Virus record (IMG/VR): IMGVR_UViG_3300005546_000008
Span: 1 to 46,085 of that record
Length of the DNA stretch: 46,085 nt
Source of the DNA: a virus
Direction: 5' to 3' (one strand)
A program made the translations under genes and the position numbers. How positions within the stretch are numbered: the stretch's first letter is position 1; each line of letters opens with the position of its first letter. This document shows, one piece after another, positions 81-43,688 of this stretch. The notes below the pieces were generated by a model. That model had not been told where the DNA came from, ran no database searches, and saw only the letters and a list, made by a program, of their open reading frames with translations.

Positions 81-1896
81 ATATTCCCTAAACGGGGGGA
101 ACGCTGCCACTGCCTCCATCTGGCTTCACCCTGGTGTTGAGCTTCATATTCCCGCAGGAACCACCATCCAGCGCGCAACGGGGTCACTCGCTTCCGCTAT
201 AGGGGTTATTTGCGCTAGCCCCAAGGGTAGCAATGGCACAGAGTTTGGGTCCAGCACAACCGGCTCCAACATCTCCATCACAGGGTCGGGAACCATAGAT
301 GGTAACTACTCCGCTTTTGCGGGCAGTGTGGGGCATGGGATTAGAATTAAGTATGTAGATGGGCTTCTCATTGACGGCCCCACCATCATCAACACCAAAC
401 AAGATGGGGTTTATATTGATGGTTGTCGTAACTTCAGAATTTCAAATCTCTTCCTCAACAATATAGGTCAAGCCACCACCGTAACCCAGCGTAATGGGAT
501 GAGTATATACAGCACTGGTAATACCACCGGCTGGGGGCAGCATGGGGCGATCAACAATATAAATATCGTAACTGTTGGTGCTGCTGGGGCAACCGCTGCG
601 GGAGAAGGCATCTCTCTACTTGACGTAGCTGATGTTACTGTATCCAACGTCACAGTGGATGGCTGTGACTACACCCTCGAACTCAACGCCCACAGCACTG
701 ATGCTGAGTGGAACCGCAACCTCACCTTCTCCAACATCGTCAGCAAAAACGCCCGCTTCACCTTCATTGCGCTGCTCGACAACGTGGCCGCAACATGGAG
801 AGATGTGGCGTTCTCTAACTGCACCTTTGAAGGACACTCCACCCTTCACAGTGGGAGCGCGGTTAGAGTCAACGTAAACACTACCGGCACCTTTGACGGA
901 CTCTCCTTCAGCAACATCATCGCCCGTAACATCAACACTGCCGATACCGCTTCCATTGCGTTCTTCCACTATCAGTCTACCACAGGAGCGGGATCAACGG
1001 GACTTAACATCTCCAACTGTAAGTTTTATGGTAAAGCGGGGAGCACTGTTATCACGTGCGCGGGAGTATCCCTAAATGGTGGATTGGCAGATGCCATCAT
1101 CTCCAACACGTTGGTGAAGGATGTTCCCGGTATAGGCTTCAATGTAGGTGGTGTCACCGCTGTCACCTCCACCGCGCGTAATGTGGTGTTCAATGGTTGC
1201 ATCGCTGACACCTGCACGGGGGATGGCTTTAAGGTATCCGCAGGAACCACAGGAACAACTCAGTATGATGTTAACTTCTACAGTTGCATAGCTAAAGATT
1301 GTGGCATAAGCGGAAATAACTCTCGTGGATTCTTCCTCACCACCACAGTGGGAGCGGGAGCTATCGTCCAAGATATCCACCTCGCTGATTGCCGCGCCTA
1401 TAAAACCTCTGGCACCTTCATGCTCTACGGCCTAAACTGTACCGCCTTCGCCGCTTCCACCCTAGGGCCGGTTTATGTGGATGATTGTGACTTCACCGGG
1501 GTTCAAACTGCGGAACTAGTTACCTCTGGTACCATCACCAACCTTCGCTGCACGGGGAAGTTTGTAGGTGCAATCCAAGCTATCCTCGCTGTGGGTAACA
1601 CTATCACCCTCCCTTCCCTCATAAAGGATTGTGTTATCCGCCTCACCGCAGACGGCAACTATACCCTCACTTCTGCCCCCACCCTCGCCAACGGCGGCTT
1701 TGAGGGGCAGGAGATTACCATCATCAACGAGGACACCGCTGAAACAATCACCGTTCAAGATCAAGGCACCCTTGCTTCCTCGAATCTTCGCCTTAGTGGA
1801 GTTAGTGTGGCGCTAGCTCCACGCGATAACATGCGCCTCATATGGAACGGAACCATTGGAGATTGGGTACAGACAGGGTTCCTCAACGTTGTCTAA
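1..1896 (+). CDS. Tailspike or tail fibre with a right-handed beta-helix (pectate-lyase-3-like) domain. This is the 3' part of a gene that starts at 45490 and crosses the circular junction (about 803 aa in total).
   Basis: Frame 1 is open from base 1 up to the track ORF 328..1896. The translated start SVSGGIQEAIDDLPSAGGKVLCSAGRTYSLNGG resembles the entry strand of pectate-lyase-type tailspikes. Repeated beta-helix rungs are present (ISNLFLNNIG, VSNVTVDGC, FSNIVSKN, FSNCTFEG, ISNCKFYG, ISNTLVKD). Confidence 0.8.
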   Translation, partial: SVSGGIQEAIDDLPSAGGKVLCSAGRTYSLNGGNAATASIWLHPGVELHIPAGTTIQRATGSLASAIGVICASPKGSNGTEFGSSTTGSNISITGSGTIDGNYSAFAGSVGHGIRIKYVDGLLIDGPTIINTKQDGVYIDGCRNFRISNLFLNNIGQATTVTQRNGMSIYSTGNTTGWGQHGAINNINIVTVGAAGATAAGEGISLLDVADVTVSNVTVDGCDYTLELNAHSTDAEWNRNLTFSNIVSKNARFTFIALLDNVAATWRDVAFSNCTFEGHSTLHSGSAVRVNVNTTGTFDGLSFSNIIARNINTADTASIAFFHYQSTTGAGSTGLNISNCKFYGKAGSTVITCAGVSLNGGLADAIISNTLVKDVPGIGFNVGGVTAVTSTARNVVFNGCIADTCTGDGFKVSAGTTGTTQYDVNFYSCIAKDCGISGNNSRGFFLTTTVGAGAIVQDIHLADCRAYKTSGTFMLYGLNCTAFAASTLGPVYVDDCDFTGVQTAELVTSGTITNLRCTGKFVGAIQAILAVGNTITLPSLIKDCVIRLTADGNYTLTSAPTLANGGFEGQEITIINEDTAETITVQDQGTLASSNLRLSGVSVALAPRDNMRLIWNGTIGDWVQTGFLNVV

Positions 1897-3985
1897 GATT
1901 AAAGTCCCCATCCCCATCAACAGCGGCATCAACACCCAAGCCACGCCCACCCAGCGTGCCCTCACCAAGCTACGCAATGCGCGTAATGCCTACTACAAGC
2001 GCGACGATATGACGCTTAGGAGGAGAGCGGATATCACTGATGTGGGGGCGGGCGTGCTTGATCCTGCTTTCTTCACCCCCCGCAACTGCACCTTTTTCGC
2101 TGATACAGATAAGACGTTTAGGAAGTTTGTATACTCCGTTGACGCTACAGCAGGAGGCTTCACCACGGGCACCCTCGCCGCCACCAACGTTGAATCACCC
2201 GGAGCATTCGACCCCATCGGCTTGAATCAGATGGGCACAGGGGGGTACCTAGGAATACGCCGTCCCACTCAATACAACAACATCCTCTACTGGCCTTCTC
2301 TCCCCAACAGCGCAGGCTTGGTGGGTGCACCTGTGGCGTGGAATGGGATTACGAGTGATGTGCGCGAGGCGGGGATTGACGTTCAACAGCATGGGGTAGC
2401 TACTACAACCTATACCATCAACGTCGCAGGAGCGGGGGCGCTCACCTTCGTCACAGGCCGCCGCTACGCTTACACCCTCTATGATAGCGTTAACGATGTT
2501 AAGAGTATGCCCGCAAACGATGGCGTCACCCTTCGTACCGTAACCACAGGAGTTATAGCGGGTAAGGTTCCTGTTGTAACCATCACATGGGGGGCCATTG
2601 ACCCTAACCTAGCTAATGTCAACAACAATCACGACAGCGTTCGCTTCTACGCCACCACCGATGGGGGAGTAACCTTCTACTTCCACTCTCAAGTAACCAT
2701 CACCCCCGACGCCAACACAGTTGGTGCCACCGCTGTCCTCACCGACTCCATGCCTGACTCAACTCTAGTTGCGGGCGAGGTGCTTGATTATCTCTCCCCG
2801 CCTCCGCCTGCTAAGTTCTTTGCTAAGTTTGAGAATAAACTTGTCGCAGGCGGCACCACCACTGCAAACGCAAGTTTGGGTAACGTCACTGGCGAAGGTG
2901 TGGTGGGTAACGTCCTCTACTACTCCCTCACCGACCAACCCGAAATGTGGCCACGCAACTTAGTATTCAGGAGTGACTTCAACGCCATCCCCTTTAAGGA
3001 TCAAGATGGGGATGAGCTTCAGGGAGCGATACAGGTTAATAGGGTGCTGCTGGTGGGGTTGCAAAATAGTGTATGGACAATCAACCACCTCCCCATAGTA
3101 GGAGTTGATCCCCTCTTCGACTTCAGCACCCTCAAGGACCGCATCAGTGACACCCACGGCTTCATCTCTGCCTATGCCTACGAGAATCTCAAGCTGAGTG
3201 ATGATGAGGATGCAGCGTTCTATGTGTCGCAGCGCGGCTTTCACCTCAACAACGGAAGCGTGGATAAACTAGTAAGCAACGATATCCAATGGGATGACAC
3301 TATCTACAACTCCTCTCAGTCTAGCTTAGTGCACGTCATCAATGACACTTCCAACTTCATCATCATCATAGGCTTCCCCAGCGTGGACAGTGACGTAGTT
3401 GATAGCGCGTATGTGTACCACTATCATCCCTCCCACCTTGGTGAGGATGGAGTTGGAGTGGTAACAGGTCCGTGGGATTACCCCCTAGCATGCTCCACCC
3501 TTGTGTTGCGCGCCGATAACACTCGCGAAGTGTGGGGGATTACTAACTCCACCACCGTTGACAACATTATTGTGAAGATTAAAGGAACCACAGGCTACGA
3601 CTACTCAGGAAGCGCCATCCCTTTCGAGTGGGAAACAGGCTGGGTGAAGATGGCAGACGACGCTGCTGCGCGTTTGCGTGAAATCAACTTCACCATAGAG
3701 GAGGCGGATTCCAACTCCATTGCGCTTGGTGTCTCCACCATCTCCCAAGTAATCCCCAAAGTTACCCCCCTCCAATTCAACACTAACGGTGCAGCACTCA
3801 AAGTGCTGTGGGATGATGATAACATCACTGTGCGCCAGATAACAGGAGGTGGGGTTGAGGTGCAGCAAGGCCCCCGCACCCTAACTATCACCTCCACCGA
3901 CCGCGCTGTGGTGAGCGTCACGGCTGATGCTGAAGTGTATGGTGAAGATAAAAACCTTGCCGACGGAAGCATGATCGAATCCTAA
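1889..3985 (+). CDS. Tail tubular protein B / nozzle-like protein (T7 gp12-like)
   Basis: A TTG at 1889 overlaps the tailspike stop (1894-1896). The N-terminus SKIKVPIPINSGINTQATPTQR resembles the gp12 N-terminus (GGISQQP type). The internal FENKLVAGG and DGDELQGAIQVNRVLLVG segments resemble the gp12 FRNRLGF and IDVAVSTNRIAIL segments. Size and position next to a gp11-like gene also fit. The track's longest ORF starts at 1856. Confidence 0.5.
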   Translation: MSKIKVPIPINSGINTQATPTQRALTKLRNARNAYYKRDDMTLRRRADITDVGAGVLDPAFFTPRNCTFFADTDKTFRKFVYSVDATAGGFTTGTLAATNVESPGAFDPIGLNQMGTGGYLGIRRPTQYNNILYWPSLPNSAGLVGAPVAWNGITSDVREAGIDVQQHGVATTTYTINVAGAGALTFVTGRRYAYTLYDSVNDVKSMPANDGVTLRTVTTGVIAGKVPVVTITWGAIDPNLANVNNNHDSVRFYATTDGGVTFYFHSQVTITPDANTVGATAVLTDSMPDSTLVAGEVLDYLSPPPPAKFFAKFENKLVAGGTTTANASLGNVTGEGVVGNVLYYSLTDQPEMWPRNLVFRSDFNAIPFKDQDGDELQGAIQVNRVLLVGLQNSVWTINHLPIVGVDPLFDFSTLKDRISDTHGFISAYAYENLKLSDDEDAAFYVSQRGFHLNNGSVDKLVSNDIQWDDTIYNSSQSSLVHVINDTSNFIIIIGFPSVDSDVVDSAYVYHYHPSHLGEDGVGVVTGPWDYPLACSTLVLRADNTREVWGITNSTTVDNIIVKIKGTTGYDYSGSAIPFEWETGWVKMADDAAARLREINFTIEEADSNSIALGVSTISQVIPKVTPLQFNTNGAALKVLWDDDNITVRQITGGGVEVQQGPRTLTITSTDRAVVSVTADAEVYGEDKNLADGSMIES

Positions 3986-5247
3986 TGGCTACTCCTCCTC
4001 TACTTCGCAAGTTAGGGCGGGCTGAGCGGGCACTGCGCCCCCATAATATCGCTCACCAGATTGACCAGATTAGAGCCAAGGTGGATGAGCTTGTGCAGGC
4101 GCTTGCTAACCTCAACCTCAACGTCACAGGCTCAAGTGGGGGCACCGCCCCCATGGTGGGGCATGCGGCGTGGACGGGGAACTACTCCACCGCTAGCGCA
4201 GATGGGGCGCTTGACACCTACATTAGAAGTGACAGTACCCTTAAGTATCCTCCCGCGCTAGGCACCCCTACAAGGGTAGTGTCGCTTAGTAACGATGGAA
4301 CTGAAGGCGCACTCCTCACCGCCGATAACAGTTTTGCCGCAAACTCCCTTGCGCTGAAAGCCCCCAACGCCACCAACACGTTGAGGGTGGGGAAGTATGG
4401 GAACCTAGCATTAGCGGGGACAGCGCTTAGTGATACTGCACTATTAAACTTTACCAAATCCTATGATGAGTCCGCCGCCACCCCAAGCTCTATTAATGCA
4501 ACCATGACTAATACAAATGTTGGCACAGCTTCGGGGGCAATTATAGGTATAGTAGCTAACATAATAGCTTCCATGACCACGGCGGGAGCATCATCCACTA
4601 ATCCAGCGCTTGGAACAAATATAATCGTCACGGGTGGAGCAATTGGTAATAATAATTTCCGCGGTTCTATAATCGTACACCGTGCAGCTTCTATAGCTCA
4701 AAGTCAAACAGCGGGGACAGCAACAGTCCCACTTATGGTTAACTTCCAATCTGGTAGTACCGCTACTGGTGCCTTCAATGTCACCCGTTCCGCTGTTACT
4801 GACGCGGCTAACTTCTACGCCCGCAGCGGTGTGCTTAGCTTTAGCGGCACCCTAACCAACCTCTACGGCCTCCTTGTTGACCCCCTCACCATAGGGACTA
4901 ACCGTTACGGAGTTAATGTAGCGGCTATCACTGGGGGAACCATTGCTACAGGAGTTGAAGTAGCTACCCACAGCGGTGGCACCACTCGCCGCTCCTTCAG
5001 AGGAGGCAACACCTTCGAGTGTACCACTCAAGACTTCTTCTGCTCCACCACAGCTAAAGGGTTAATGTGTAAAGATTCCCAAGGCACCGCTGAATATTGG
5101 CGCACCTACATTGACTCCACCGGCACCAAAGACATGACCATGACTGTGGATAGCACAGGGTTTGCATCCTTCACTCGCGCCGCATCTGCCACCGGGGATG
5201 TGCTGCTTAAAGTTATTGACACCGGCACCACCGCTCCAACAACTTAG
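3985..5247 (+). CDS. Tail fibre-like structural protein
   Basis: TAATG stop-start overlap with the upstream gene. The N-terminus is helical or coiled-coil (IDQIRAKVDELVQALANLN). The rest is a long Gly/Ala/Thr/Ser/Asn-rich beta-type sequence. It lies in the tail module. Confidence 0.4.
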   Translation: MATPPLLRKLGRAERALRPHNIAHQIDQIRAKVDELVQALANLNLNVTGSSGGTAPMVGHAAWTGNYSTASADGALDTYIRSDSTLKYPPALGTPTRVVSLSNDGTEGALLTADNSFAANSLALKAPNATNTLRVGKYGNLALAGTALSDTALLNFTKSYDESAATPSSINATMTNTNVGTASGAIIGIVANIIASMTTAGASSTNPALGTNIIVTGGAIGNNNFRGSIIVHRAASIAQSQTAGTATVPLMVNFQSGSTATGAFNVTRSAVTDAANFYARSGVLSFSGTLTNLYGLLVDPLTIGTNRYGVNVAAITGGTIATGVEVATHSGGTTRRSFRGGNTFECTTQDFFCSTTAKGLMCKDSQGTAEYWRTYIDSTGTKDMTMTVDSTGFASFTRAASATGDVLLKVIDTGTTAPTT

Positions 5248-5257
5248 AGGATAACGT

Positions 5258-5812
5258 GTGGCTATCATCATTTCCCGCGCAGTTGGGGTGGACACCACAG
5301 CCAATCAGCCCGCTGCCGCAACTGCTAACAGACTCTACGTCCACACCACAAGTGGGAGCAAACTCTACCTCCCCGAGATCGATGATGGCGCAGCGTGGCA
5401 ACCTTGGCGTGCCAACTTCGCTTACTGTATGTTCGCTGTTCACACCACCGCTGCAACATGGAATGTGGACCCTGGAGGGATTGGAACCTATCTCTCCTTC
5501 GATACCACTAATCAAGCTAACCTCCACAACCTCGACTTCACACGTTTCCGGCAGGGTAGGATTATTGCAAGGTGCAGCAACAGCGCCCTCTCTTCTGGGT
5601 CCATCTTGGTTAAGATAGTTGACATCACCAACACTCAAGATTTAACCCCCGCTGTGACGTTTCTTGCAAACGGATTATGGGCCACACGGGTCTCTGCGTG
5701 GCAGGCGCTTAACTCCGCAACCTACGCGGGGGATGCAGTTTTTGAAATCCAAGGGTTATCTGGAATGGGTGATGCGCTTGCTGTTGGAACTATAGCCCTT
5801 GAACTTCGTTAA
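5258..5812 (+). CDS. Hypothetical structural protein (tail fibre module)
   Basis: 184-aa ORF with a GTG start. The NRLYVHTTSGSKLYLPEIDDGAAWQPW motif resembles the LY-x-TDT-x-LY-x-DG-x-W motif common in phage minor tail and fibre proteins. Confidence 0.4.
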   Translation: MAIIISRAVGVDTTANQPAAATANRLYVHTTSGSKLYLPEIDDGAAWQPWRANFAYCMFAVHTTAATWNVDPGGIGTYLSFDTTNQANLHNLDFTRFRQGRIIARCSNSALSSGSILVKIVDITNTQDLTPAVTFLANGLWATRVSAWQALNSATYAGDAVFEIQGLSGMGDALAVGTIALELR

Positions 5813-5830
5813 CTAATTGGAGCTTCGCTA

Positions 5831-6055
5831 ATGGCAAAGTTAGTCCTCACTTTGGATCTTCAGCAGGATAATGGCACTAGCATTATCAAAGGCACTCAAA
5901 CTAAACCTTCCTTTACAAGCGCCGACTTTGAGCTTGTGCGAGGTTTTCTAGTGGGCCAAGCACTCTCCAACCTCCTCAAGATGCAGGGGTGGAGAGCGGA
6001 CAATACCATCACTCTATCTGGTGAACCCATAACCCTCACTATAAGTAGTCTCTAG
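5831..6055 (+). CDS. Hypothetical protein (tail module)
   Basis: 74-aa ORF packed tightly between co-oriented genes. Confidence 0.45.
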   Translation: MAKLVLTLDLQQDNGTSIIKGTQTKPSFTSADFELVRGFLVGQALSNLLKMQGWRADNTITLSGEPITLTISSL

Positions 6056-6057
6056 AC

Positions 6058-6588
6058 ATGGCCTACCATCATCTCTACAACGACGGCTTCTCCTTCTCTC
6101 AAACCTCCATCGCAAGCGGCGACACCATCTCCAACACCAACGTCGCTACCTCCTTCGCCACCGGATTCACCCTGCGAGATGGCGCACTCGCCGATGGACG
6201 TAGTATTAAAATCCACGCCGCTTTCCGCGTCTCCACCACTGGCACTCCCACACTAGGCCTTAAACTCTTTGCCAATCAACAGACTGTCGCTCTGCTCACC
6301 TTCACCGCGTGGACGCTGGGCAATAACCTTTCCGCCACTCTCATCACCCTCAACGGGCACATCACCACCACAGGTTATGGTAAGTCTGCCACAAACAAGT
6401 GTGTGGGGATTGTGGATGACATCGGCTCAAACATCCGCACCGCTTCCACCGTTCCCAGCATTGACCCCCAACTCTATCGCGCCGACCTCTCGCAGATATG
6501 GACTATGCAAGCAACCTTCAGCGCACAAGACCCCGCCAACATCATCGTGATGCATCAGTTTGATCTGCATCAGTATACCTCCACCTAA
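6058..6588 (+). CDS. Hypothetical beta-rich structural protein (tail fibre module)
   Basis: 176-aa ORF that starts 2 nt after the upstream stop. Its Thr/Ser/Asn-rich composition is typical of fibre distal domains. Confidence 0.45.
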   Translation: MAYHHLYNDGFSFSQTSIASGDTISNTNVATSFATGFTLRDGALADGRSIKIHAAFRVSTTGTPTLGLKLFANQQTVALLTFTAWTLGNNLSATLITLNGHITTTGYGKSATNKCVGIVDDIGSNIRTASTVPSIDPQLYRADLSQIWTMQATFSAQDPANIIVMHQFDLHQYTST

Positions 6589-18471: not shown

Positions 18472-18540
18472 CCTTGCACCTCCTCCTCAGAATAAGCCCA
18501 CCTAAACATGATCCCCCCCAAACTTTTTTTGGGGAAAAAT

Positions 18541-18744
18541 TTAGACAACCTCATCCACCTTGAGCGCATCCCCATAATGCTTCGTTAACAAGTCAGCTAA
18601 CGTGGGAAGATGCTTCAAGGGAAGCTCCCACTCCTCAAGCGTCTCCTTGTTCACCACCTGAATCCATTGCTGGCTTGTGATTCTGTAGACGTAGGAGCTT
18701 CCTTCGATCTTTTGGAAAGTTGAGGGAAGAGGTAACATTTCCAT
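18541..18744 (-). CDS. Hypothetical protein
   Basis: 67-aa ORF (MEMLPLPSTFQKIEGSSYVYRITSQQWIQVVNKETLEEWELPLKHL...). Its start lies inside the 3' end of 18635..18994. Confidence 0.4.
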   Translation of the reverse strand: MEMLPLPSTFQKIEGSSYVYRITSQQWIQVVNKETLEEWELPLKHLPTLADLLTKHYGDALKVDEVV

Positions 18745-18994
18745 TCTCCAATGTGGTAATGGTTGAGTAATCTTCGCCCGTTGCTTTATCCACTAGAATA
18801 TTGTAATCACCCTGAAGGAAAGGTTTGAGAAGCCGCGTGCGCCAGTCTGGTGCATCATACTCGTTATACCACCACCTAAACATCTCAAGGGGATGCCTCC
18901 ACCAACGCATACTAATCACCGTTGCAATTTGAAAGTAAAATCCCACACTTTGGGCACACAACCTTACAGTGGTTAGGGACACCTTCTCTTCCAC
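18635..18994 (-). CDS. Hypothetical protein. Its 3' 110 nt overlap the next ORF in another frame.
   Basis: 119-aa ORF directly downstream of the polymerase gene. The N-terminal two thirds look protein-like (RWWRHPLEMFRWWYNEYDAPDWRTRLLKPFLQGDYNILVD). The tail is low-complexity. Confidence 0.4.
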   Translation of the reverse strand: MEEKVSLTTVRLCAQSVGFYFQIATVISMRWWRHPLEMFRWWYNEYDAPDWRTRLLKPFLQGDYNILVDKATGEDYSTITTLENGNVTSSLNFPKDRRKLLRLQNHKPAMDSGGEQGDA

Positions 18995-19015
18995 ATGCGG
19001 GGCAGCGATCTTCGT

Positions 19016-20482
19016 TCACTTTAACTCCCCCCAATTCTTCCCACGTTTAACATCCGCCTTAGCCCAGAACTTTCCACGCTCCACATCTTTCATCTCTTCC
19101 CACTCGCGTTGCAAAATTTCACATTTGATTTTAGCATAATCCTCCACAATTTTTTCTGGAACACTAGTCAAAAAAGAATCATGGGTGGTGGTTACGAGTC
19201 TGGCACCACAAACTGTTGCGGCCTTTTCCAGTAAAGGTAGACATACTAAGCACATCATCGCCTCGCTGCTTTGCACTAACCATCCCATTGCCTCCCTGAA
19301 ATCAGCCTCTTTAGCATACTTAGCCGCCTTTGGATAGGAGTTATAGTAGTAACTAGGCAATCCCCATGGGTTAATAAGGTTCCCTCCATTTTCCAGTTGT
19401 CTCCGAATTTCACCCCACCATCTAACAATATTTGGATAAGCGCTTCGTGCTGCACTATCGATAAGTAATGCGTCTTTCCTCGTAATCCCATAAAGCTCCT
19501 GCATCTTAAAGGGTCCCATCCCAAACACCCACCCATAAGAGAGTGGCTTAGCCAACTTCCTCAACGAATGCTTCGATCCGGGGAATAAGGTGGCTTCCGC
19601 TTCCTCCTTATCTTGGGGCGGCTTGACCCCGATCGCTTCCGCCAATATTCTCGCATTGTGGGTGTGGATGTCACCTTTTTCGATGAGTTCGTACATCCCC
19701 CACTCCCCTGCGAGGAACGCTGCAATCTTGGCTTGGACTTGGGACCAATCGGCGCTAACGAACCAATCGCTGAGGCCGTCGGGCACATAAATGCTCCTAC
19801 ACTCCTCGGGAATATTCTGCAAGTTACCGCTATCTGAAGTCCTTCCCTTCCCGGATTCAGATAAGTCTGAACCGCTTGCCACTCGCTTCGTGGAAGTTCG
19901 ATGAAGGCTATATGAAGGGTGCGTATAGCCTGCTCGATCAATCTTGATCTTGTACTCGGTGGACAATCTTTTCGAGCACCACTGGATTTCACCCGCATAC
20001 TTCAACACCTCCACATCATCATAATGCTGAATCATCCACTTCAATTCATCCTTACCCAGTTTTTGATTACCTTTCTTCGTGGTAGATCGCGGAGGAGTCC
20101 TAAGCATAAGCTCCTGGAAAAGCAACCATCTCCATGCATTAAGATTAGTAACTCGAAAGGTTTCTCCATGTTTGTCAAGTTCCCGTCTCTGAAGGTTGAT
20201 GAGGCGGGTAAGCTCTTTAGTGTCTCCGCGAACTGCCTTGCACTGAGCCCTTTCTGCATCGAGCACCTCAAGGTGATTACGTAGGGTGGAGAGCTTACGG
20301 GAGTGAACCTCATTCGCTAGCTCGATGACTCTCTTTGACGCAACCTGTTTACGCCTGCGGGCATCCTTCTTAGCCACCGCTAGAGCATCACGATCAACCC
20401 TGATGCCCCCCGCTTCCATCCTCATCAGCGCCCCTTGAGCGGGGACGAGGATGTTATTGTAGAGATCCCATAAGCTATTCAA
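19016..20482 (-). CDS. Family A DNA polymerase, polymerase (palm/fingers/thumb) domain only
   Basis: Motifs read in order: GNLQNIPEE, motif A FVSADWSQVQAKIAAFLAGE, DIHTHNA, motif B RKLAKPLSYGWVFGMGP, motif C VTTTHDSFL. The N-terminus LWDLYNNILVPAQGALMRMEAGGIRVD corresponds to the first helix of the Klenow polymerase domain. It starts at a TTG (TTGA overlap with the upstream stop) with a GAGG Shine-Dalgarno 7 nt upstream. Confidence 0.85.
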   Translation of the reverse strand: MNSLWDLYNNILVPAQGALMRMEAGGIRVDRDALAVAKKDARRRKQVASKRVIELANEVHSRKLSTLRNHLEVLDAERAQCKAVRGDTKELTRLINLQRRELDKHGETFRVTNLNAWRWLLFQELMLRTPPRSTTKKGNQKLGKDELKWMIQHYDDVEVLKYAGEIQWCSKRLSTEYKIKIDRAGYTHPSYSLHRTSTKRVASGSDLSESGKGRTSDSGNLQNIPEECRSIYVPDGLSDWFVSADWSQVQAKIAAFLAGEWGMYELIEKGDIHTHNARILAEAIGVKPPQDKEEAEATLFPGSKHSLRKLAKPLSYGWVFGMGPFKMQELYGITRKDALLIDSAARSAYPNIVRWWGEIRRQLENGGNLINPWGLPSYYYNSYPKAAKYAKEADFREAMGWLVQSSEAMMCLVCLPLLEKAATVCGARLVTTTHDSFLTSVPEKIVEDYAKIKCEILQREWEEMKDVERGKFWAKADVKRGKNWGELK

Positions 20483-21024
20483 GGGTTAGCCTCGAAGAAT
20501 GCTTGAGCAAACTTAGCTGATGTTTCAGATCGCAACCTCTTCGTGCGCTCAGACTTACCCCCAAGTTTCCTCCATCCCCAAAATTCATGCTTACACTTGT
20601 GCCTATTACGAGGTGGCATAGTAAACTTTCCCCATAAGCAAGTGCGTTTGCTCCAATCTTCACCGTACTCACATGGGCTAAAAATGGTAACAGGTGGGCC
20701 AATGAATTTACGTAAACGTCCTACGGGATTTTCTAACGCCCACCAAGCTGGGGAGGCTAATTCAATTACGTCCATACAAGCTACGGCAATATCCACCGCT
20801 TCAGCTAACAACTCAGGGGGCTTAGTGGCCCACCATCTAGCCCCGCTAACTGCAAACTCAGTACAAGGTGGTGCAGCAAGGATACCATGAACATTTGAAG
20901 GGGGAATATAATTTCTGATATCAATTTCGGGGAGAGTAACCAATCTTACATCATACCCTGCCTCTTTATAGGGTCTACTCCACGCTCCCGTCCCCCCACA
21001 CAAGTCTAAGATGATTTTACCCAC
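20479..21024 (-). CDS. Miniature DNA (cytosine-5)-methyltransferase-like protein (181 aa), interposed between the two halves of the DNA polymerase
   Basis: Motif I LDLCGGTGAWS, motif IV ILAAPPCTEFAVSG (PC catalytic dipeptide), motif VI WALENPVG. There is no room for a canonical target-recognition domain. GTG start with an AAGGAG Shine-Dalgarno 7 nt upstream. Confidence 0.6.
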   Translation of the reverse strand: MGKIILDLCGGTGAWSRPYKEAGYDVRLVTLPEIDIRNYIPPSNVHGILAAPPCTEFAVSGARWWATKPPELLAEAVDIAVACMDVIELASPAWWALENPVGRLRKFIGPPVTIFSPCEYGEDWSKRTCLWGKFTMPPRNRHKCKHEFWGWRKLGGKSERTKRLRSETSAKFAQAFFEANP

Positions 21025-22174
21025 CCATCATCTCCTTATGCTTATCGTGCAACCTTCGCGTTTGGATAACGTCCATTGCGCAATAGAGCTTATTCCACTG
21101 CCACTCACTCCATTGTGGGTAAGCAATCTTATAGTATGCTTGCACCCACTTCAACTCCTCCACCCTCTTCCACGGAGCTTGATCCTCAAACTCCCTCAAC
21201 ACACAATTCTGCAACCCCAACCACTTCACCTTCAGCTTTTTCTTTTTCGCACCGTTTTCATCTTCGCCCGCTTCAACTTTGCGGTCTGCGACGGGGGGGT
21301 AAATAGTGGACGCTTGAGTGATTGTATCATGCACTCGTGTGCGTAGGCTGATGTTACCGAGTTGGTTAAGGGAGAATCCTCTATGATCGTAGTAAAAGTT
21401 GTGACCCACGATTTCCCTACCACTCCCTTGTATTCCCCGCTCAATAGCTCTTCTGAGGCTTCCATTGCCCCAATCTGCCACAACGGCTTTGTTAGGTGTG
21501 GGCGCAATACCAACGAGTATAATTTCTCCTTGTCTCCCACGGGGAGTCTCGATATCAATGGAAATAGGTCCACCATCATCTTCGGCGAAGGCTTCTTCAA
21601 TGTCATCCTCCATAGGGTTAAGGTTGATTGTGATACCCCGCAAACGATTATAGTCTGGAACAACTTTTCTTGACGTTTCAGTTTCTCCGGGCAACACTCC
21701 ATAGTATTCTAGCAAATAATTACTGCCCTCATAGTAAACTCCCGGCCCATATTCCCGCTGGCTCCAAGCCGCCGCACGCTGAATAAATCTATAAAGCGTC
21801 GGCAGCATCCATCTTGACCCCTTCATCGCATCAGCGGGATGCAGACTCACCACCACACTATGAACATTGGGGGTGCGATAAAGTATATCCACAACCTTGT
21901 TGGCGTTTGCTATAGCCTCAAACTCCTGCCTATTCCAAACCGCCCCCATCACCTCTGCGGGATTGGTCAGTCCCGATGATATCCTTAACGCATCAGATCC
22001 CAGAAGTAGGAGTGTTTTCGCATTTGAGGTGGGATACTCGGTACATGGCATAACCTCAACTCCCTCCACCCCACCCTCACTCCGCGCTCGATAAGGATCA
22101 ACTCCCAACCCTTTCCAGATATGATAAAAGCTTCCATCTGAGGCTGGAAGGTGGGAGAGGATTAGGAGGCTCAT
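21017..22174 (-). CDS. DNA polymerase N-terminal part: 3'-5' exonuclease domain preceded by a domain of about 190 aa with degenerate uracil-DNA-glycosylase-like features
   Basis: Exo I ISIDIETP, Exo II VGHNFYYDHRGF, Exo III YCAMDVIQT. The N-terminal region has LLLLGSDA and VVSLHPADAM, which resemble degenerate UDG family-4 motifs (GEAPG and HPS). Confidence 0.75.
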   Translation of the reverse strand: MSLLILSHLPASDGSFYHIWKGLGVDPYRARSEGGVEGVEVMPCTEYPTSNAKTLLLLGSDALRISSGLTNPAEVMGAVWNRQEFEAIANANKVVDILYRTPNVHSVVVSLHPADAMKGSRWMLPTLYRFIQRAAAWSQREYGPGVYYEGSNYLLEYYGVLPGETETSRKVVPDYNRLRGITINLNPMEDDIEEAFAEDDGGPISIDIETPRGRQGEIILVGIAPTPNKAVVADWGNGSLRRAIERGIQGSGREIVGHNFYYDHRGFSLNQLGNISLRTRVHDTITQASTIYPPVADRKVEAGEDENGAKKKKLKVKWLGLQNCVLREFEDQAPWKRVEELKWVQAYYKIAYPQWSEWQWNKLYCAMDVIQTRRLHDKHKEMMGG

Positions 22175-22392
22175 TTAACCTTCACCCATCCTGTTACATT
22201 TCGCATTCCATAATCCACCCTAACAAGGAAAGCATCATCCCACACAATATTTTCCTCAGTCAGAAGAGCTCGCAGGTGCGCTTTCCCCTGCCCAATCGAG
22301 CAATAATCGCCAGTAACTTTCATAAAGCCACCTCGCACTCGGATAATACCAATCCAAGCGGGCAACTCTACGTCATCTATTTCCTTTTTCAA
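22171..22392 (-). CDS. Hypothetical protein
   Basis: 73-aa ORF with ATGA-type overlaps to the genes on both sides. Confidence 0.5.
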   Translation of the reverse strand: MKKEIDDVELPAWIGIIRVRGGFMKVTGDYCSIGQGKAHLRALLTEENIVWDDAFLVRVDYGMRNVTGWVKVK

Positions 22393-23294
22393 GAAATCCC
22401 CTCCACCCTATCACAAACTTGTTTGAGACTACAATAGTCGGAGCACTTCTTCTTGTTAAACATACTGCGGCCGATGAGGGGAACTGACTCTTTGACAACT
22501 TCCCCCACATTTACATAAGTACTAGCTCCCCCTAAAAATCCTTGATTAGCTACATAATCATGTTTCAAATTGAGCAGCGCTTCTGCGGCTTTCCCCGCAA
22601 TAAACCCCACAGTGAAATCCCCACCCCCTGGACGATGCGCCGCAATCCTCTCCTCATCCCACACCGGCACCTTGAACCTCTTCATCTCCTTCCCCGCTCC
22701 AGCCATACTACTTCTCACCACTTCCATCTCCACCACCCTCAAGCCGGGTTCCTGCTGCTCCCACAACAACCTTTGCATGTTAACCTGACACGCATGATCA
22801 TCTTTGAGCGTCCACTCTTTGTAACCGTCTTTGTCGAAGGAGTGGAATTTGCCTTCGCAGATTTTGCCTTCCTTAGTATACCCTGCATGCTCCAACCCTG
22901 TTGTAGCATACATCAAGCTAAGATCAATCGCCGCGCTTAAAGGGAGGCCCAGGATTGTCCCCTGAACCTCCCTCTCAGCCACCCACCCTATTGGAGGAAA
23001 CTTTGCAATAGCAGCCTGAACGAGGGTTCCCACTGCGGGGGTATGTTGCGTGCGTGGATCGAACGTGTGGGGAAGGAAGTCCGCAAGCAGCCACTCGCGG
23101 GGGCAGGTTAGGAGGCGCGTAACGGTTATCTTACCATCTCTATGCCTGGTGTCGTTGAGGGCATGATTAAGAAGTGAATGCCACCACGCTCTAGCTTGTG
23201 CGCTCCCCGCACACTCAGGGGCGGTGTCGCTCACCCAATGGGTTAAGTCAGTGGTCTCAATCTTGCAGGCGGGGCAGAAAAGGGCGCTAATCAC
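22389..23294 (-). CDS. PD-(D/E)XK nuclease, Cas4/RecB-like, with a Cys cluster
   Basis: N-terminal CPAC and a C-terminal Cys cluster KKKCSDYCSLKQVC, like the Fe-S cluster of Cas4/AddB-type nucleases. AIDLSL ... CEGKF fits the D...ExK catalytic motif. Confidence 0.55.
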   Translation of the reverse strand: MISALFCPACKIETTDLTHWVSDTAPECAGSAQARAWWHSLLNHALNDTRHRDGKITVTRLLTCPREWLLADFLPHTFDPRTQHTPAVGTLVQAAIAKFPPIGWVAEREVQGTILGLPLSAAIDLSLMYATTGLEHAGYTKEGKICEGKFHSFDKDGYKEWTLKDDHACQVNMQRLLWEQQEPGLRVVEMEVVRSSMAGAGKEMKRFKVPVWDEERIAAHRPGGGDFTVGFIAGKAAEALLNLKHDYVANQGFLGGASTYVNVGEVVKESVPLIGRSMFNKKKCSDYCSLKQVCDRVEGIS

Positions 23295-23791
23295 TAGGGT
23301 AATCCTCCTAGAAAGAACACAATATGACTCCTAGATACGTCAACTTTGCGCCCGTCGGGGGTTAAAAACTTCGCCCTAAAGGGTGGCTTCCAGTCCCCCC
23401 ATTTATTTTTTTCCAACAATCTGTAATACTTTGTGGTGGAATCATTGGGGACAATGATAGCCACAAACGCCCCAAGGGACGCCTCTTTAACAGCTTTCTC
23501 CGCCCAACTATATATATCAGAGTAGGGCATATTCACAAAGCATTTCATCGCTTTCCAACTTTGCAGGAGCCCGTTACCCTCCTTAGTATAGAAATGGGGG
23601 GTGTTTAACCTATTACCCGAAGCAGCGCAAGGATCAAGTTCAAAGTTGAAAAGGCGGTTAAGGGGGACCCATACTTCATCGGGAGTATACCTCTCATCCG
23701 TATCATCATCACTCATCTCAATCATCACTCCTCCCCACTCAGCGTCACCGCGCACCCAATGATGTAGCCGAACATCAATCCAATCATCCAC
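23294..23791 (-). CDS. Phage Dam-family DNA N6-adenine methyltransferase-like protein
   Basis: ERYTPDEVWVPLNRLFNFELDPCA ... LLQSWKAMKCFVNMPYSDIYSWAEKA matches the layout of the phage N6-adenine methyltransferase family (TP...LD...W...NPPY). The catalytic tetrapeptide here is NMPY. Confidence 0.6.
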   Translation of the reverse strand: MDDWIDVRLHHWVRGDAEWGGVMIEMSDDDTDERYTPDEVWVPLNRLFNFELDPCAASGNRLNTPHFYTKEGNGLLQSWKAMKCFVNMPYSDIYSWAEKAVKEASLGAFVAIIVPNDSTTKYYRLLEKNKWGDWKPPFRAKFLTPDGRKVDVSRSHIVFFLGGLP

Positions 23792-32273: not shown

Positions 32274-32915
32274 ATGCGCGTCGCCGTCACAGGTTCCACA
32301 GGAAGGTTAGGGAAGGAGATTCACAAACTCCGTCCTAATTTCGTCGCTTTGGGCCACGATGTAACCTCATTTTGGGGTATAAGCGGCGGATTCGACACCT
32401 TGATCCACCTTGCAGCGATGACCCACGTTCCAACGTGCGAGCGCGAACGCGACCTAGCGTGGAAAGTGAACGTGGTGGGTACTGCCAATGCGGTCGAGTG
32501 GTGTCTCCGCACAGGCTGCAAGATGGTGTACATGAGTTCCTCATATGCAGTGAATCCGGTGAATTGGTATGGACGGACGAAGAGGTGTGGGGAGATAATT
32601 GCATCTCATGCCGCTGGAGGCCTTATCGTTCGCAGCCAGTTCAAAGAACGCCCCTACCCCTACAATATAGCCCCCACCGACGCATACGCCAGGGCAATGT
32701 ACGCGGATGAGGTTGCAAATGAGTTGGTTAAGCTCGTTGAGGGAGAAACTTCGGGAATTGTTGGTATTTGGGGAAAGCGACGAAGTTTGTTTGACTTCGC
32801 CCGAGAATCAAGAAGTGACGTTAAACCCTGCCTTCGACGAGATCTACCCCATACTATCCCAGCCGATGCTTCTCCAGAAGCCAGTTCACAAGGATCATCG
32901 CGGGTGGGTGTATGA
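32274..32915 (+). CDS. rmlD: Short-chain dehydrogenase/reductase resembling dTDP-4-dehydrorhamnose reductase (RmlD-like), unusually short at 213 aa
   Basis: MRVAVTGSTGRLGKEI is a Rossmann GxxGxxG motif. IHLAAMTHV, MSSSYAV and the catalytic YGRTK (YxxxK) are present. LIVRSQF matches the RmlD IxRTSW segment. Confidence 0.55.
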   Translation: MRVAVTGSTGRLGKEIHKLRPNFVALGHDVTSFWGISGGFDTLIHLAAMTHVPTCERERDLAWKVNVVGTANAVEWCLRTGCKMVYMSSSYAVNPVNWYGRTKRCGEIIASHAAGGLIVRSQFKERPYPYNIAPTDAYARAMYADEVANELVKLVEGETSGIVGIWGKRRSLFDFARESRSDVKPCLRRDLPHTIPADASPEASSQGSSRVGV

Positions 32916-33302: not shown

Positions 33303-34289
33303 ATGAGAATCCTAGTAACGGGGGGATTTGGGTTCATCGCCTCCGAGTTGGTACGCCAACTTGTTGAGAAGGGTGATACTATTGCCGTTGTGGACCCCAT
33401 CACCTACGCAGCCTCTATGGATAACTTAGCTGATGTAGAGGGAAAATTCGAGCATTACATATGCGGGGTTGAAGATCCCGATATTCACTCTCTCCTCGCC
33501 CACTTCAAGCCTGAGATTATCTACCACGCTGCGGCTGAGAGCCACGTTGATAGGAGCCTCAACTCCTACAAAGCCTTCGTAGACACCAACATCACCGGCA
33601 CCTTCAACCTCATTGAGGCAGTGAGGGTGCATGCACCAACATGTAAGTTTGTGTATGTGAGCACGGATGAGGTGTATGGCTCCTTACCCGAGGGGCGCGC
33701 CACTGAGGGTTCACCCCTCAACCCCACTAATCCCTACAGCGTAAGCAAAAGTGCCGCTGAACATACGGTTAGGGCCGCCGCGCATACCTGGGGACTCAAT
33801 TTTGTAATCACAAGGAGCTGCAACAACTATGGCCCACGGCAACATCCCGAGAAGCTCATCCCTCATGCTATCACCAAACTCCTCAGTGGAGAAGCAATCC
33901 ACCTCCATGGTGACGGGGGGAACATCAGAGAGTGGGTATATGTGGCGGACAACGTCCGAGGGATTATTGCGGCCGCGGATAGTGGTGTATTGGGAGAAAC
34001 CTACAACGTCACTACAGCGATTGCTCAGACGAATAAGGAGATTGTTTACCTCCTCGCTAACAAGTTAGGTGTCATCCCCAACATCGAATACGTCCCTGAT
34101 CGCCCCGGCAACGACCTCCGCTACGCTATGACTTCCGCCAAACTTCGCCTCCTTGGCTGGAAGCCTGAAGAAACTCTCGATAGTGGTATTGATAAGACAA
34201 TCGCGTGGTACGAAAAAAGCAAGATGTGGTGGAGCAGCAAATCGACGCCGCTCTCCAAGCCCAGCGGGTCCAAAAGCTCCAACAGCTAA
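33303..34289 (+). CDS. rmlB: dTDP-glucose 4,6-dehydratase (RmlB)
   Basis: MRILVTGGFGFIASELV (GxxGxxG), YHAAAESHVDRS, VSTDEVYG, the catalytic YSVSKSAAE (YxxxK) and SCNNYGPRQHPEKLIP are all hallmark RmlB segments, present in order. Confidence 0.85.
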   Translation: MRILVTGGFGFIASELVRQLVEKGDTIAVVDPITYAASMDNLADVEGKFEHYICGVEDPDIHSLLAHFKPEIIYHAAAESHVDRSLNSYKAFVDTNITGTFNLIEAVRVHAPTCKFVYVSTDEVYGSLPEGRATEGSPLNPTNPYSVSKSAAEHTVRAAAHTWGLNFVITRSCNNYGPRQHPEKLIPHAITKLLSGEAIHLHGDGGNIREWVYVADNVRGIIAAADSGVLGETYNVTTAIAQTNKEIVYLLANKLGVIPNIEYVPDRPGNDLRYAMTSAKLRLLGWKPEETLDSGIDKTIAWYEKSKMWWSSKSTPLSKPSGSKSSNS

Positions 34290-40746: not shown

Positions 40747-41124
40747 GTGGCTAGCGGGTTCCACGGAAGTATGCCAGCAGAGGTGTTTAAGGGGCTTATT
40801 GAGCGCGCTAACCCCACCGATAAGGCCCTCAAGTTTGAGGTGTCGCGCATGAATGGATACCGCAACGCGGGGTTGTATCGCGATGATCAATACATCATGG
40901 GCGTGACGCGCAACGAATTCCCTGAATACACCGTGAGAAGCGCGGATGACGGGATTGAAGCGTTAGGGTGGAGGGAAGCACTAACCTCTCTTCTCCTTGA
41001 AGGGTATATCAAGGTAACCCCCGAGATTGTAACATGGTTGGGGATGGATGGAGTGGCGTACGCACTCTCGCCGCGTGGGGGGGAGTGGATTCCTAACGAG
41101 AAAGAGAGTATAATTATAAAATGA
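40747..41124 (+). CDS. Hypothetical protein
   Basis: GTG start 2 nt after an AAGGAGAG Shine-Dalgarno. 125 aa. ATGA overlap with the first glycosyltransferase gene. Confidence 0.5.
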   Translation: MASGFHGSMPAEVFKGLIERANPTDKALKFEVSRMNGYRNAGLYRDDQYIMGVTRNEFPEYTVRSADDGIEALGWREALTSLLLEGYIKVTPEIVTWLGMDGVAYALSPRGGEWIPNEKESIIIK

Positions 41125-41891
41125 GCTACCCCACTATAAGCTGTATCATCTCCACCTATAACCGAGCTAACTTCCTCCGCCGCGCCCTTGCAAGCGTTCT
41201 CGCTCAAGATATCAAAGAGGAGATTGAATGTGTGGTTGTGGATGATGCATCTACAGATTCAACCTTCGATGTGGTGAAGAGTTTCGATAAGGCGTTCACC
41301 CTCAAGGGAATACCCCTCCTATTTTACAAGTTGGGCGAGAATAGCGGCTATCAGTGCAAGCCTAAGAATGTGGGGGTGCAGCATTGCAATGGGGAGTTTA
41401 TCGCCTATCTTGATGATGACAACGTATGGAAGCCTAACCACCTCCGCGAACTCTTCACCGCCATCATAGAGAAAGAAGTGGATATGGTGTATGGGATGAG
41501 GGAGTATAAGGCTATGGAGGGGTATGATCCTATCCACCTGGGAAAGAAGCTCTCCCTCGGTCCCTCTCCCATATTCCCCTTTGAGGTGGAGCGGCTTGAG
41601 CAAGGTAACTTCATCGACACCAGCGATATCATGCACACGAAGGGCGCCTATTACCTCCTCGCTTCCAAAACTGAGTGTGGCTGGGATGAGGAGATGCGCC
41701 GCTTCGCAGACTGGAACTTCGTCTATCGCTGGGCTAAGGTGGGATTAAGCGCCGCACCCGTCTATAGGATACTTACCGAGTATTGGTGGCATGGACAAAA
41801 CTTGCAGCTTACTCGCCCCGTTATGGAGCAGCCCCTTGCTGTAGGGAGGTTTGACCTTGAAAATAGCGGTCTACACACTAACGCGGGATAG
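41121..41891 (+). CDS. Family 2 glycosyltransferase (GT-A fold)
   Basis: ISCIISTYNRANFLRRALASVLAQ, ECVVVDDASTDST and FIAYLDDDNVW (DxD) are the canonical GT2 N-terminal motifs. Confidence 0.8.
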   Translation: MSYPTISCIISTYNRANFLRRALASVLAQDIKEEIECVVVDDASTDSTFDVVKSFDKAFTLKGIPLLFYKLGENSGYQCKPKNVGVQHCNGEFIAYLDDDNVWKPNHLRELFTAIIEKEVDMVYGMREYKAMEGYDPIHLGKKLSLGPSPIFPFEVERLEQGNFIDTSDIMHTKGAYYLLASKTECGWDEEMRRFADWNFVYRWAKVGLSAAPVYRILTEYWWHGQNLQLTRPVMEQPLAVGRFDLENSGLHTNAG

Positions 41892-43090: not shown

Positions 43091-43688
43091 GGATGATACT
43101 TACTACACCAAAGTTCAAGCCGAGCACAACGACGTAAGCGGCTTCTGGGTGAACCGCGCTCTCTACGCAGCTAAGAACTTCCTTGAGGTGGTGGGAGCTA
43201 ACCTGTTTGATGATGACACCGTTGCGGACTTTGGCTCGCGCACAGGGTATGTTGCAGACATGCTCAAGCGTATAACCTCCCTCAACCCTATCTGTGTGGA
43301 TATTAGCGCCGAACATATCAAGGTGTGTGAGAGTAAAGGTTTCCCCGCCTTCGCGGGTAGGATTGAGAATATGAGCTTTTTGCGGGATGGTGAGGTGGAT
43401 TGGGGATTTTGTTCGCACACGCTGGAGCATGTTAAGGATTACGACGCAGCGGTGAAGGAGCTTAATAGGGTGGTGAAGCGTGGGTTGTTTATCGTCATCC
43501 CAATGGAGCACGAAGATGCGGGGGATGCTAACCCCTCCCACATGCGCTTCTCTACCAACATCCACGACTACATCACCCCCTTCGAGGCGCTGGGGTGGAA
43601 GATGGGGTGGGAGTGTCCGCCTATCCCTAACGCTGAAGATTACGACCCCGAGAGCAGAAGCGACTACCAAGTTTGGTTGTACCGATGA
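43059..43688 (+). CDS. Class I SAM-dependent methyltransferase. Start uncertain.
   Basis: VADFGSRTGYVADML is motif I. VDWGFCSHTLEHVKDYDAAVKELNRVVKRGLFIV matches the Methyltransf_11-type motifs. There is no ATG or GTG between 43011 and 43150. The TTG at 43059 follows AAGGGGGA. The track ORF starts at 42963. Confidence 0.7.
   Translation: MNTASYQKCVKDDTYYTKVQAEHNDVSGFWVNRALYAAKNFLEVVGANLFDDDTVADFGSRTGYVADMLKRITSLNPICVDISAEHIKVCESKGFPAFAGRIENMSFLRDGEVDWGFCSHTLEHVKDYDAAVKELNRVVKRGLFIVIPMEHEDAGDANPSHMRFSTNIHDYITPFEALGWKMGWECPPIPNAEDYDPESRSDYQVWLYR

Follow-up and report, generated by a model that had tools for sequence, protein, structure and literature searches.

A UDG-type family A DNA polymerase encoded as separate exonuclease and polymerase genes around a variable gene slot in an uncultured phage genome

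In the IMG/VR virus record IMGVR_UViG_3300005546_000008 (positions 1 to 46,085, the whole stretch of DNA analysed here and hereafter the window), the family A DNA polymerase is split, with its exonuclease and polymerase domains encoded in separate, adjacent, co-oriented and intact open reading frames (ORFs), and this organization is conserved among relatives. We consider it likely, with good confidence, that these ORFs specify a two-subunit polymerase which arose by fission of a gene of the uracil-DNA glycosylase (UDG) type, that the gene lying between the halves is a translationally coupled accessory gene, and that no recoding is involved. A first-pass annotation, made from the sequence alone, had placed three minus-strand ORFs at the following coordinates (lengths in amino acids, aa), and this observation proved correct throughout when compared with the ORF list and read directly.

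21017..22174, minus strand: UDG-like and exonuclease ORF, 385 aa, ATG start (ORF list)
20479..21024, minus strand: C5-methyltransferase-like ORF, 181 aa, GTG start (ORF list)
19016..20482, minus strand: family A polymerase ORF, 488 aa, TTG start (ORF list)

Results and discussion

The exonuclease and polymerase subunits

The 385-aa ORF comprises a degenerate family-4 UDG-like domain (residues 1 to ~175), which had been overlooked in the first-pass annotation, followed by a 3'-5' exonuclease domain (residues ~176 to 385). A clade alignment and profile, designated A1, was made from eight sequences, namely the window protein and seven relatives; such a profile was needed because phmmer with the single 385-aa sequence against PDB sequences gave a chance match only. 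The A1 profile matched the T. thermophilus UDG 1ui0 at 3.3e-11, together with other family-4 UDGs, and the Klenow exonuclease at 0.03. Motifs Exo I, II and III, already assigned to this ORF in the first reading, were located within it, and their catalytic residues are invariant across the eight sequences.

21650-22174, minus strand: UDG-like domain, residues 1 to ~175 of the 385-aa ORF
21548..21556, minus strand: Exo I, D207-I-E209; D207 and E209 invariant in A1
21386..21400, minus strand: Exo II, N259-F-Y-Y262-D263; H258, N259, Y262 and D263 invariant in A1
21071..21085, minus strand: Exo III, Y364-C-A-M-D368; Y364 and D368 invariant in A1

In a profile search, the 385-aa ORF matched positions 652-827 of phrog_17 at 8.8e-9. 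The Pfam exonuclease family (PF01612) was matched by five of the eight clade members (best E = 8.2e-7), the window protein itself falling below the gathering cut-off (13.5 against 23.6 bits, E = 0.062); Pfam UDG was likewise found in five of the eight (best 4.1e-19), and the UDG-like domain of the window is by itself too degenerate for a Pfam match. NCBIfam returned nothing for the exonuclease ORF, and a weak Pfam 'Vint Hint-domain' match in one clade member (E = 0.044) was taken as chance. From these motifs and profile matches, the 385-aa protein is assigned as the proofreading subunit of the split polymerase.

As seen in A1, the GEAPG motif of the UDG-like domain is replaced by SHLPA in the window, L002 and P0243 sequences (SHLPAS now stands at this site in the window), with ~25 residues missing and HPA kept, while GEAPG and the ~25-residue stretch are kept in L005, L007, L008 and P0244. 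Because the GEAPG motif is gone, the domain is probably inactive in the window and, by analogy with what has been proposed for N4-like UDG-PolA enzymes, probably acts as a structural or processivity module.

The 488-aa ORF corresponds to the thumb, palm and fingers of a family A polymerase domain. It covers positions 14-381 of the 381 positions of PF00476 (98.4 bits against a cut-off of 34.3, E = 5.5e-28) and matches phrog_17 over positions 834-1233, adjoining the 652-827 stretch matched by the 385-aa ORF. Its motifs A, B and C can be aligned with those of Taq and Klenow, in agreement with the earlier placement of these motifs in a separate ORF, and residues R308, K312 and Y316 of motif B (RKLAKPLSYGWVFG) line up with Taq and do not vary within the clade. 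The protein is accordingly annotated as the polymerase subunit, with catalysis predicted from its sequence.

19727..19750, minus strand: motif A, D245-WSQVQAK, aligned to Taq DYSQIELR; D245 and W246 clade-invariant
19520..19561, minus strand: motif B, R308-KLAK312-PLSYGWVFG, aligned to Taq RRAAKTINFGVLYG; R308 and K312 clade-invariant
19175..19183, minus strand: motif C, H434-D435-S436, aligned to Taq HDE; TTTHDSF clade-invariant

Two residues are non-canonical and fixed in the clade, a Gln at the position of the Klenow E710 'steric gate' (motif A, DWSQVQAK) and a Ser at that of Klenow E883 (HDS, not HDE); in motif B, a Tyr stands at the Klenow F762 position. Sugar or nucleotide selectivity may possibly be affected. 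The polymerase ORF of L002 (6001-7650), the closest relative, is 61 aa longer than that of the window; it carries an internal insertion of ~37 aa ahead of motif C, and its C-terminal tail is rich in Cys (CEDHKVPTEDCKKC).

Conservation and origin of the split

When 50,697 phage records were searched with the region by megablast, no match was returned, and the best protein-level phage matches, with actinophages on top, were at most 29 % identical, so that cultured relatives were unusable for comparison. Among the related loci, the same cut was found in six lineages (L002/L006, L003, L004, L005, L007 and L008) with polymerase identities of 33-79 %, and all polymerase relatives in this range carry the polymerase domain alone. 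The polymerase ORF begins at the homologous residue in all six, using ATG, GTG or TTG as start, and the halves are adjacent and co-oriented in every lineage compared. The first-pass annotation had left it to such a comparison whether split and insert are conserved: the split is, in the six lineages, and the methyltransferase is absent from this position in every related locus compared. The window and L002 share one relative frame of exonuclease and polymerase, from which L004, L005, L007 and L008 depart; since this frame varies between lineages, no conserved frameshift can rejoin the halves. Ratios of nonsynonymous to synonymous substitution rates (dN/dS) between the window and L002 (0.168 for the exonuclease, 0.172 for the polymerase) indicate that both halves are under equal purifying selection. 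The conserved split, the intact ORFs, the catalytic motifs and the purifying selection lend support to the 'two-subunit enzyme', which had been offered in the first reading as one of its alternatives.

In the more distant L009 (30 % identical), the exonuclease runs straight into the polymerase N-terminus, and the window halves, placed end to end, are collinear with this junction to within 0-3 residues, indicating that the cut removed and added essentially nothing. Some 40 still more distant relatives (~40, at 22-30 % identity) carry UDG and polymerase in one ORF of ~2.4 kb, and P0044 is a fused UDG-exonuclease-polymerase protein of 750 aa. A search of the full library with the 385-aa protein recovered 53 representative clusters, ~19 of which are short (330-430 aa) and ~25 long (695-1031 aa). 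With UDG, exonuclease and polymerase united in a single ORF in the distant relatives, the sequence comparison indicates that the ancestor was a fused UDG-PolA and that the fission is a derived state in a moderately sized clade.

L009 is itself fragmented elsewhere. The first two thirds of its UDG form a separate ORF (522-1070), after which come a beta-helix protein of 772 aa, an ORF of 58 aa and an HNH-like ORF (3651-4064); the remaining UDG, the exonuclease and the first ~78 polymerase residues lie at 3949-5268, with a frame change at GGAGGAAGAATG (~5001) into the remaining polymerase. This fragmentation (522-6326) could be a genuine case of 'genes in pieces' tied to a homing endonuclease, or an assembly indel.

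Junctions and translation signals

Both gene overlaps, the GTG and TTG starts and the Shine-Dalgarno-like sequences described in the first-pass annotation were recovered by direct reading (distances in nucleotides, nt).

21032..21037, minus strand: Shine-Dalgarno AAGGAG, 7 nt upstream of the GTG (direct reading)
21017..21024, minus strand: junction 1, 8-nt overlap GTGGGTAA, with GTG at 21024-21022 and the exonuclease TAA at 21019-21017
20490-20493, minus strand: Shine-Dalgarno-like GAGG, 7 nt upstream of the TTG
20479..20482, minus strand: junction 2, TTGA overlap, with TTG at 20482-20480 and TGA at 20481-20479

The predicted anti-Shine-Dalgarno pairing is -9.3 kcal/mol for AAGGAG and -5.9 kcal/mol for GAGG, the mean at random positions being -3.2. 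AAGGAG is embedded in conserved C-terminal codons of the exonuclease (KEMMGG), where it serves whichever gene comes next; pairing of -6.4 to -12.7 kcal/mol is found at the same place behind the exonuclease in all 7 loci, encoded by (K/R)EMM(E/G) codons. The Shine-Dalgarno of the polymerase start behind the intervening gene is variable (-2.1 to -7.5 kcal/mol), and for this reason the polymerase start probably leans on stop/start coupling. Its first base in the window comes from the inserted gene, whose final Pro codon CCT followed by TGA yields the TTG; the relatives show ATGA, GTGA or TTGA at this point. Promoter and terminator scans performed no better than shuffles and were uninformative on operon structure.

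The methyltransferase between the halves

The 181-aa ORF was described in the first-pass annotation as C5-methyltransferase-like, an identification which is upheld by a match to phrog_757 'DNA methyltransferase' at 1.1e-48, by its motifs and by the fold of its model. Its homologs number at least 7980 and are typically 178-220 aa long; the ORF is full-length with respect to this family, from KIILDLCGGTG through the family's own C-terminus FFEANP. Motif I (DLCGGTG), motif IV (PPC, with C54) and motif VI (ENP, with E98 and N99) are invariant in 22 family members. The AlphaFold2 model, with a predicted local distance difference test score (pLDDT) of 85.5, has a C5-methyltransferase fold, and the top 50 Foldseek hits were all C5 DNA methyltransferases (DNMT3A, M.HaeIII, M.HhaI, DNMT1, MET1) at probability 1.00, with template modelling (TM) scores of ~0.5-0.6 normalised to the query. 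NCBIfam gave nothing for this ORF. The earlier statement that it is devoid of intein or homing-endonuclease features also stands, for introns as well, after comparison with Pfam, PHROG and Rfam. That the middle ORF might be a polymerase linker read in the wrong frame, which the first reading had named as a finding that would overturn it, was ruled out, since the joined halves abut exactly as in the unsplit L009 homolog and homology searches show the insert to be a full-length member of a separate, methyltransferase family.

From sequence we regard the 181-aa gene as an ordinary, promiscuous, free-standing orphan C5-cytosine methyltransferase, with activity predicted; as the family suggests, it probably shields the DNA of the phage against restriction by the host. 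Elsewhere the family turns up in unrelated gene contexts: a 66 %-identical homolog sits beside structural genes, and Pelagibacter phage HTVC106P has one in its early region. Among cultured phages, 1444 records contain homologs. Sequence comparison with the related loci marks the methyltransferase as a passenger and not a conserved partner of the split.

Turnover of the slot

The position between the two halves, referred to here as the slot, differs from lineage to lineage. It is empty in L008, where exonuclease and polymerase overlap directly at ATGA, and is occupied by one 35-aa ORF in L004 (with an insert as short as 100 nt), a hydrophobic 55-aa ORF in L005, a 67-aa ORF in L003, a 74-aa ORF in L002/L006 and two ORFs of 29 and 68 aa in L007. 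The occupants are mutually unrelated and none resembles the methyltransferase; the slot ORFs of the relatives matched no significant PHROG or Pfam family. The nucleotide homology between the window and L002 (82-85 %) ends at 21016 and restarts at 20481, that is, at the exonuclease stop and the polymerase start. The window with L010 and L011, and the 79 %-identical relative represented by L002, L006 and L001, both come from ENA ERZ27265208 and JGI 3300005518; as the methyltransferase variant and the 74-aa-ORF variant share both sources, two slot variants co-occur in one community.

The idea of the slot as an unusually hot insertion site had to be tempered. Between the exonuclease gene and the neighbouring orf301, a 73-aa ORF (22171-22392, minus strand) has a non-homologous counterpart in L002 (4461-4684) with both flanks aligning, which on sequence grounds makes it a second gene boundary with a cassette-like replacement. 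Since the orf301/exonuclease boundary also shows a small-ORF swap, the slot behaves like an ordinary phage gene boundary.

A more speculative view, to which we give little credence, is that the junction is a conserved expression socket which captures small genes and whose occupants are recruited to the replisome physically or functionally. The socket would consist of the Shine-Dalgarno hard-wired in the exonuclease C-terminal codons and the stop/start overlap into the polymerase. If this were true, slot genes would be produced together with the polymerase subunits in time, place and dose, allowing, for example, replication-coupled methylation of nascent phage DNA.

Assembly of the enzyme and alternative explanations

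The explanation that we favour runs as follows. A replicative family A polymerase of the UDG type would have been split at the loop joining the exonuclease and polymerase domains before a clade of soil and metagenomic phages diversified, so that the enzyme is made as two polypeptides, UDG-like plus exonuclease (385 aa) and polymerase (488 aa), which most likely reassemble non-covalently into a Klenow-like architecture. Unrelated small genes would then swap in and out of the new boundary, with breakpoints exactly at the exonuclease stop and the polymerase start. The three genes are presumably co-transcribed and would be translated separately with translational coupling, the slot gene using the Shine-Dalgarno within the exonuclease C-terminal codons and the polymerase being started through NTGA coupling plus the modest GAGG. 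Frameshift, bypass, splicing and protein splicing would all be unnecessary.

The structural side of this explanation was approached with an AlphaFold2 run on an artificially joined single chain, using an alignment of database homologs. The model, a confident one (pLDDT 81, predicted TM score 0.80), places the cut within a short loop that links helices 357-383 and 389-410, and superposes on polymerases complete in both domains, the Bst large fragment (TM 0.82-0.84) and Klenow (0.72-0.76). It points to compatibility of the halves, not to binding.

Several observations weigh against the two-subunit explanation or parts of it. The structural test used one covalent chain and AlphaFold2 may echo the learned architecture of the family; association of the two polypeptides is a prediction. 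The polymerase start codon, TTG, is weak and its Shine-Dalgarno modest (-5.9 kcal/mol), the Gln and Ser at the Klenow E710 and E883 positions are non-canonical, and GEAPG is lost from the UDG-like domain. The 181-aa protein falls below the PF00145 cut-off (12.5 against 22 bits, E = 0.095) and has almost no target-recognition domain, with ~30 residues between motif VIII and the C-terminal helices. Finally, L010 and L011 match the window at 100 % identity and probably share its sample; they therefore support the assembly and do not amount to independent sampling of the methyltransferase variant.

It is conceivable, if unlikely, that the halves are uncoupled, the 488-aa protein being an exonuclease-free polymerase and the 385-aa protein an independent nuclease or DNA-binding factor, with proofreading in trans or none at all. 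Such independence would sit well with separate genes that tolerate up to 534 nt of foreign sequence between them and with the degenerate UDG-like domain, but it does not account for the equal constraint on both halves or for their remaining adjacent and co-oriented in every lineage. The joined model moreover reproduces a canonical exonuclease-polymerase interface, and family A polymerases are reported to need the exonuclease domain for stability (PMC10201439).

Very unlikely, in our judgement, is a recoding event producing a functional methyltransferase-polymerase or exonuclease-polymerase fusion, such as the -1 slip that the first-pass annotation had proposed at CCC-TTG-A. Its arithmetic was right, as the polymerase frame is -1 relative to the methyltransferase frame at TTGA, and a tRNA-Pro could re-pair from CCU to CCC with the stop codon in the A site, but recoding itself found no support. 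CCCTTGA (C-CCT-TGA) is not an X XXY YYZ heptamer, no unusual RNA structure was seen at the junctions (z = -1.28 and -0.8), and the slip would fuse the methyltransferase to the polymerase, leaving exonuclease and polymerase apart. Relatives with an unrelated or empty slot share the generic NTGA in junctions that are otherwise unrelated, the relative frame of exonuclease and polymerase varies between lineages, and the exonuclease frame has many stops across the 534-nt gap.

An artefact, with a polymerase that is really continuous or a methyltransferase joined by chimeric assembly, appears highly improbable. Although the sequence is a metagenomic contig, and the contigs carrying the methyltransferase variant are identical and probably from one sample, a JGI assembly and an ENA k141 assembly, made by two pipelines, are identical in sequence, and six diverged lineages, sampled elsewhere, have the split as well. 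A chimeric join would not leave a full-length methyltransferase ORF tied to each neighbour by an exact stop/start overlap, as is seen here.

Phage polymerase genes are classic targets of mobile elements (PMC2988022), and L009 has an HNH ORF beside its fragmented polymerase; nevertheless, a selfish element (homing-endonuclease cassette, intein, or intron of group I or II) that is excised from the RNA or the protein is a scarcely credible reading of the insert, given that no Rfam match at E <= 1 was found within 18500-22700, that the insert shares its frame with neither neighbour and matches methyltransferase families only (Pfam, PHROG), that the slot insert of L004 is so short, and that the exonuclease C-terminus and polymerase N-terminus are free of intein blocks and abut as in the unsplit homolog.

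Comparison with known split polymerases

LUZ24-like Pseudomonas phages (Bruynoghevirus) resemble the window in having separate, co-oriented exonuclease and polymerase genes with unrelated genes between them. In LUZ24, gp25 is the exonuclease subunit, gp26-gp33 intervene and gp34 is part II of the polymerase; in UFV-P2, part I (171 aa) and part II (546 aa) are separated by ten small ORFs (PMC3890496). LUZ24 differs from the window in its gap of ~2.3 kb with eight intervening genes including an endonuclease, in a further polymerase break (gp34/gp35/gp36) and in having no UDG-like domain, whereas the window has a single gap gene overlapping both neighbours and shows no detectable close sequence relationship to the LUZ24-like phages.

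In T7-type cyanopodoviruses of the S-SBP1 kind, exonuclease and polymerase lie in adjacent genes that arose by fission, frameshifting having been dismissed (Czernecki et al., NAR 2023, PMC10201439), and the predicted complex of S-SBP1 exonuclease and polymerase is identical to the unsplit Syn5 polymerase (PMC10201439). The empty-slot locus L008 resembles this state. The S-SBP1-like fission, however, took place by a 1-nt frameshift giving overlapping ORFs with nothing inserted, in a T7-like cluster lacking the UDG domain, whereas the clade of the window has a UDG-type PolA and a junction with variable inserted genes. The polymerase is also encoded in two genes in MEP401-like OM43 phages, with one small ORF of unknown function inserted (PMC10580990), and an uncultured lineage of marine cyanophages likewise has it in two genes (bioRxiv 10.1101/325100). 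These belong to other phage groups and their inserted ORFs are without homologs; compared with the MEP401-like case, the occupant in the window is an identifiable methyltransferase and the slot is variable across relatives.

UDG-PolA enzymes (N4-like cluster 17 and SPO1-type) carry an N-terminal family-4 UDG-like domain before the exonuclease and polymerase domains (PMC10201439), and the N4-like ones lose the UDG catalytic residues, as in the window. They are single polypeptides of 800-900 aa, whereas the window chain ends after the exonuclease domain. The window is placed with the UDG-PolA enzymes by domain order.

An essential replication enzyme in two cistrons with foreign DNA in the gap is also known among T4-type phages, where gp43 is split into 43A and 43B in Aeromonas phages 25 and 44RR and nrdA of Aeh1 is split by mobE (PMC2988022). 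The halves of split T4-type gp43 co-purify and are active, the pieces reassembling into an active enzyme, and the insert may either have caused the split or have entered a gene already in two pieces (PMC2988022). These cases concern a family B polymerase or a ribonucleotide reductase, and their inserts are homing endonucleases or an untranslated spacer; the window, in contrast, has a family A polymerase and a methyltransferase insert without a nuclease.

Genome and other genes

The first 80 nt of the window are the same as the last 80 (an exact direct repeat at 1-80 and 46006-46085), showing that the contig closes on itself as a complete phage genome of ~46,005 bp; a 46,146-bp version of the same contig, with a longer k-mer overlap, exists. 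It also encodes a large terminase, a portal, a major head protein, a primase/helicase-like protein and a Sak4-like annealing protein.

23294-23791, minus strand: Dam-like N6-adenine methyltransferase (PF05869 at 7.7e-16)

This Dam-like gene lies two genes upstream of the polymerase and, unlike the C5 enzyme of the slot, is kept in L002 (61 %) and L004 (49 %). On the plus strand, the ORFs at 32274-32915 and 33303-34289 both match phrog_540 'nucleotide-sugar epimerase' (profile positions 293-441 and 293-605); the shared start in the profile makes a partial duplication possible. Glycosyltransferase-like genes are found at 41121-41891 and 43673-44824, amid structural genes.

Conclusions

Split family A polymerases have been described before and no new mechanism is revealed here. 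The case would represent a further, independent exonuclease/polymerase fission among family A polymerases, in a UDG-type lineage, and what is new is the comparative series showing turnover of the slot, including a methyltransferase. The relatives capture fused, empty-slot and several occupied-slot states, a clean natural series that bears on whether proofreading and polymerase domains function as separate subunits and on how fast accessory genes are gained at a new gene boundary. It also carries a warning for annotation, namely that a phage PolA recorded as 'exonuclease-less' may have its proofreading half one or two genes upstream.

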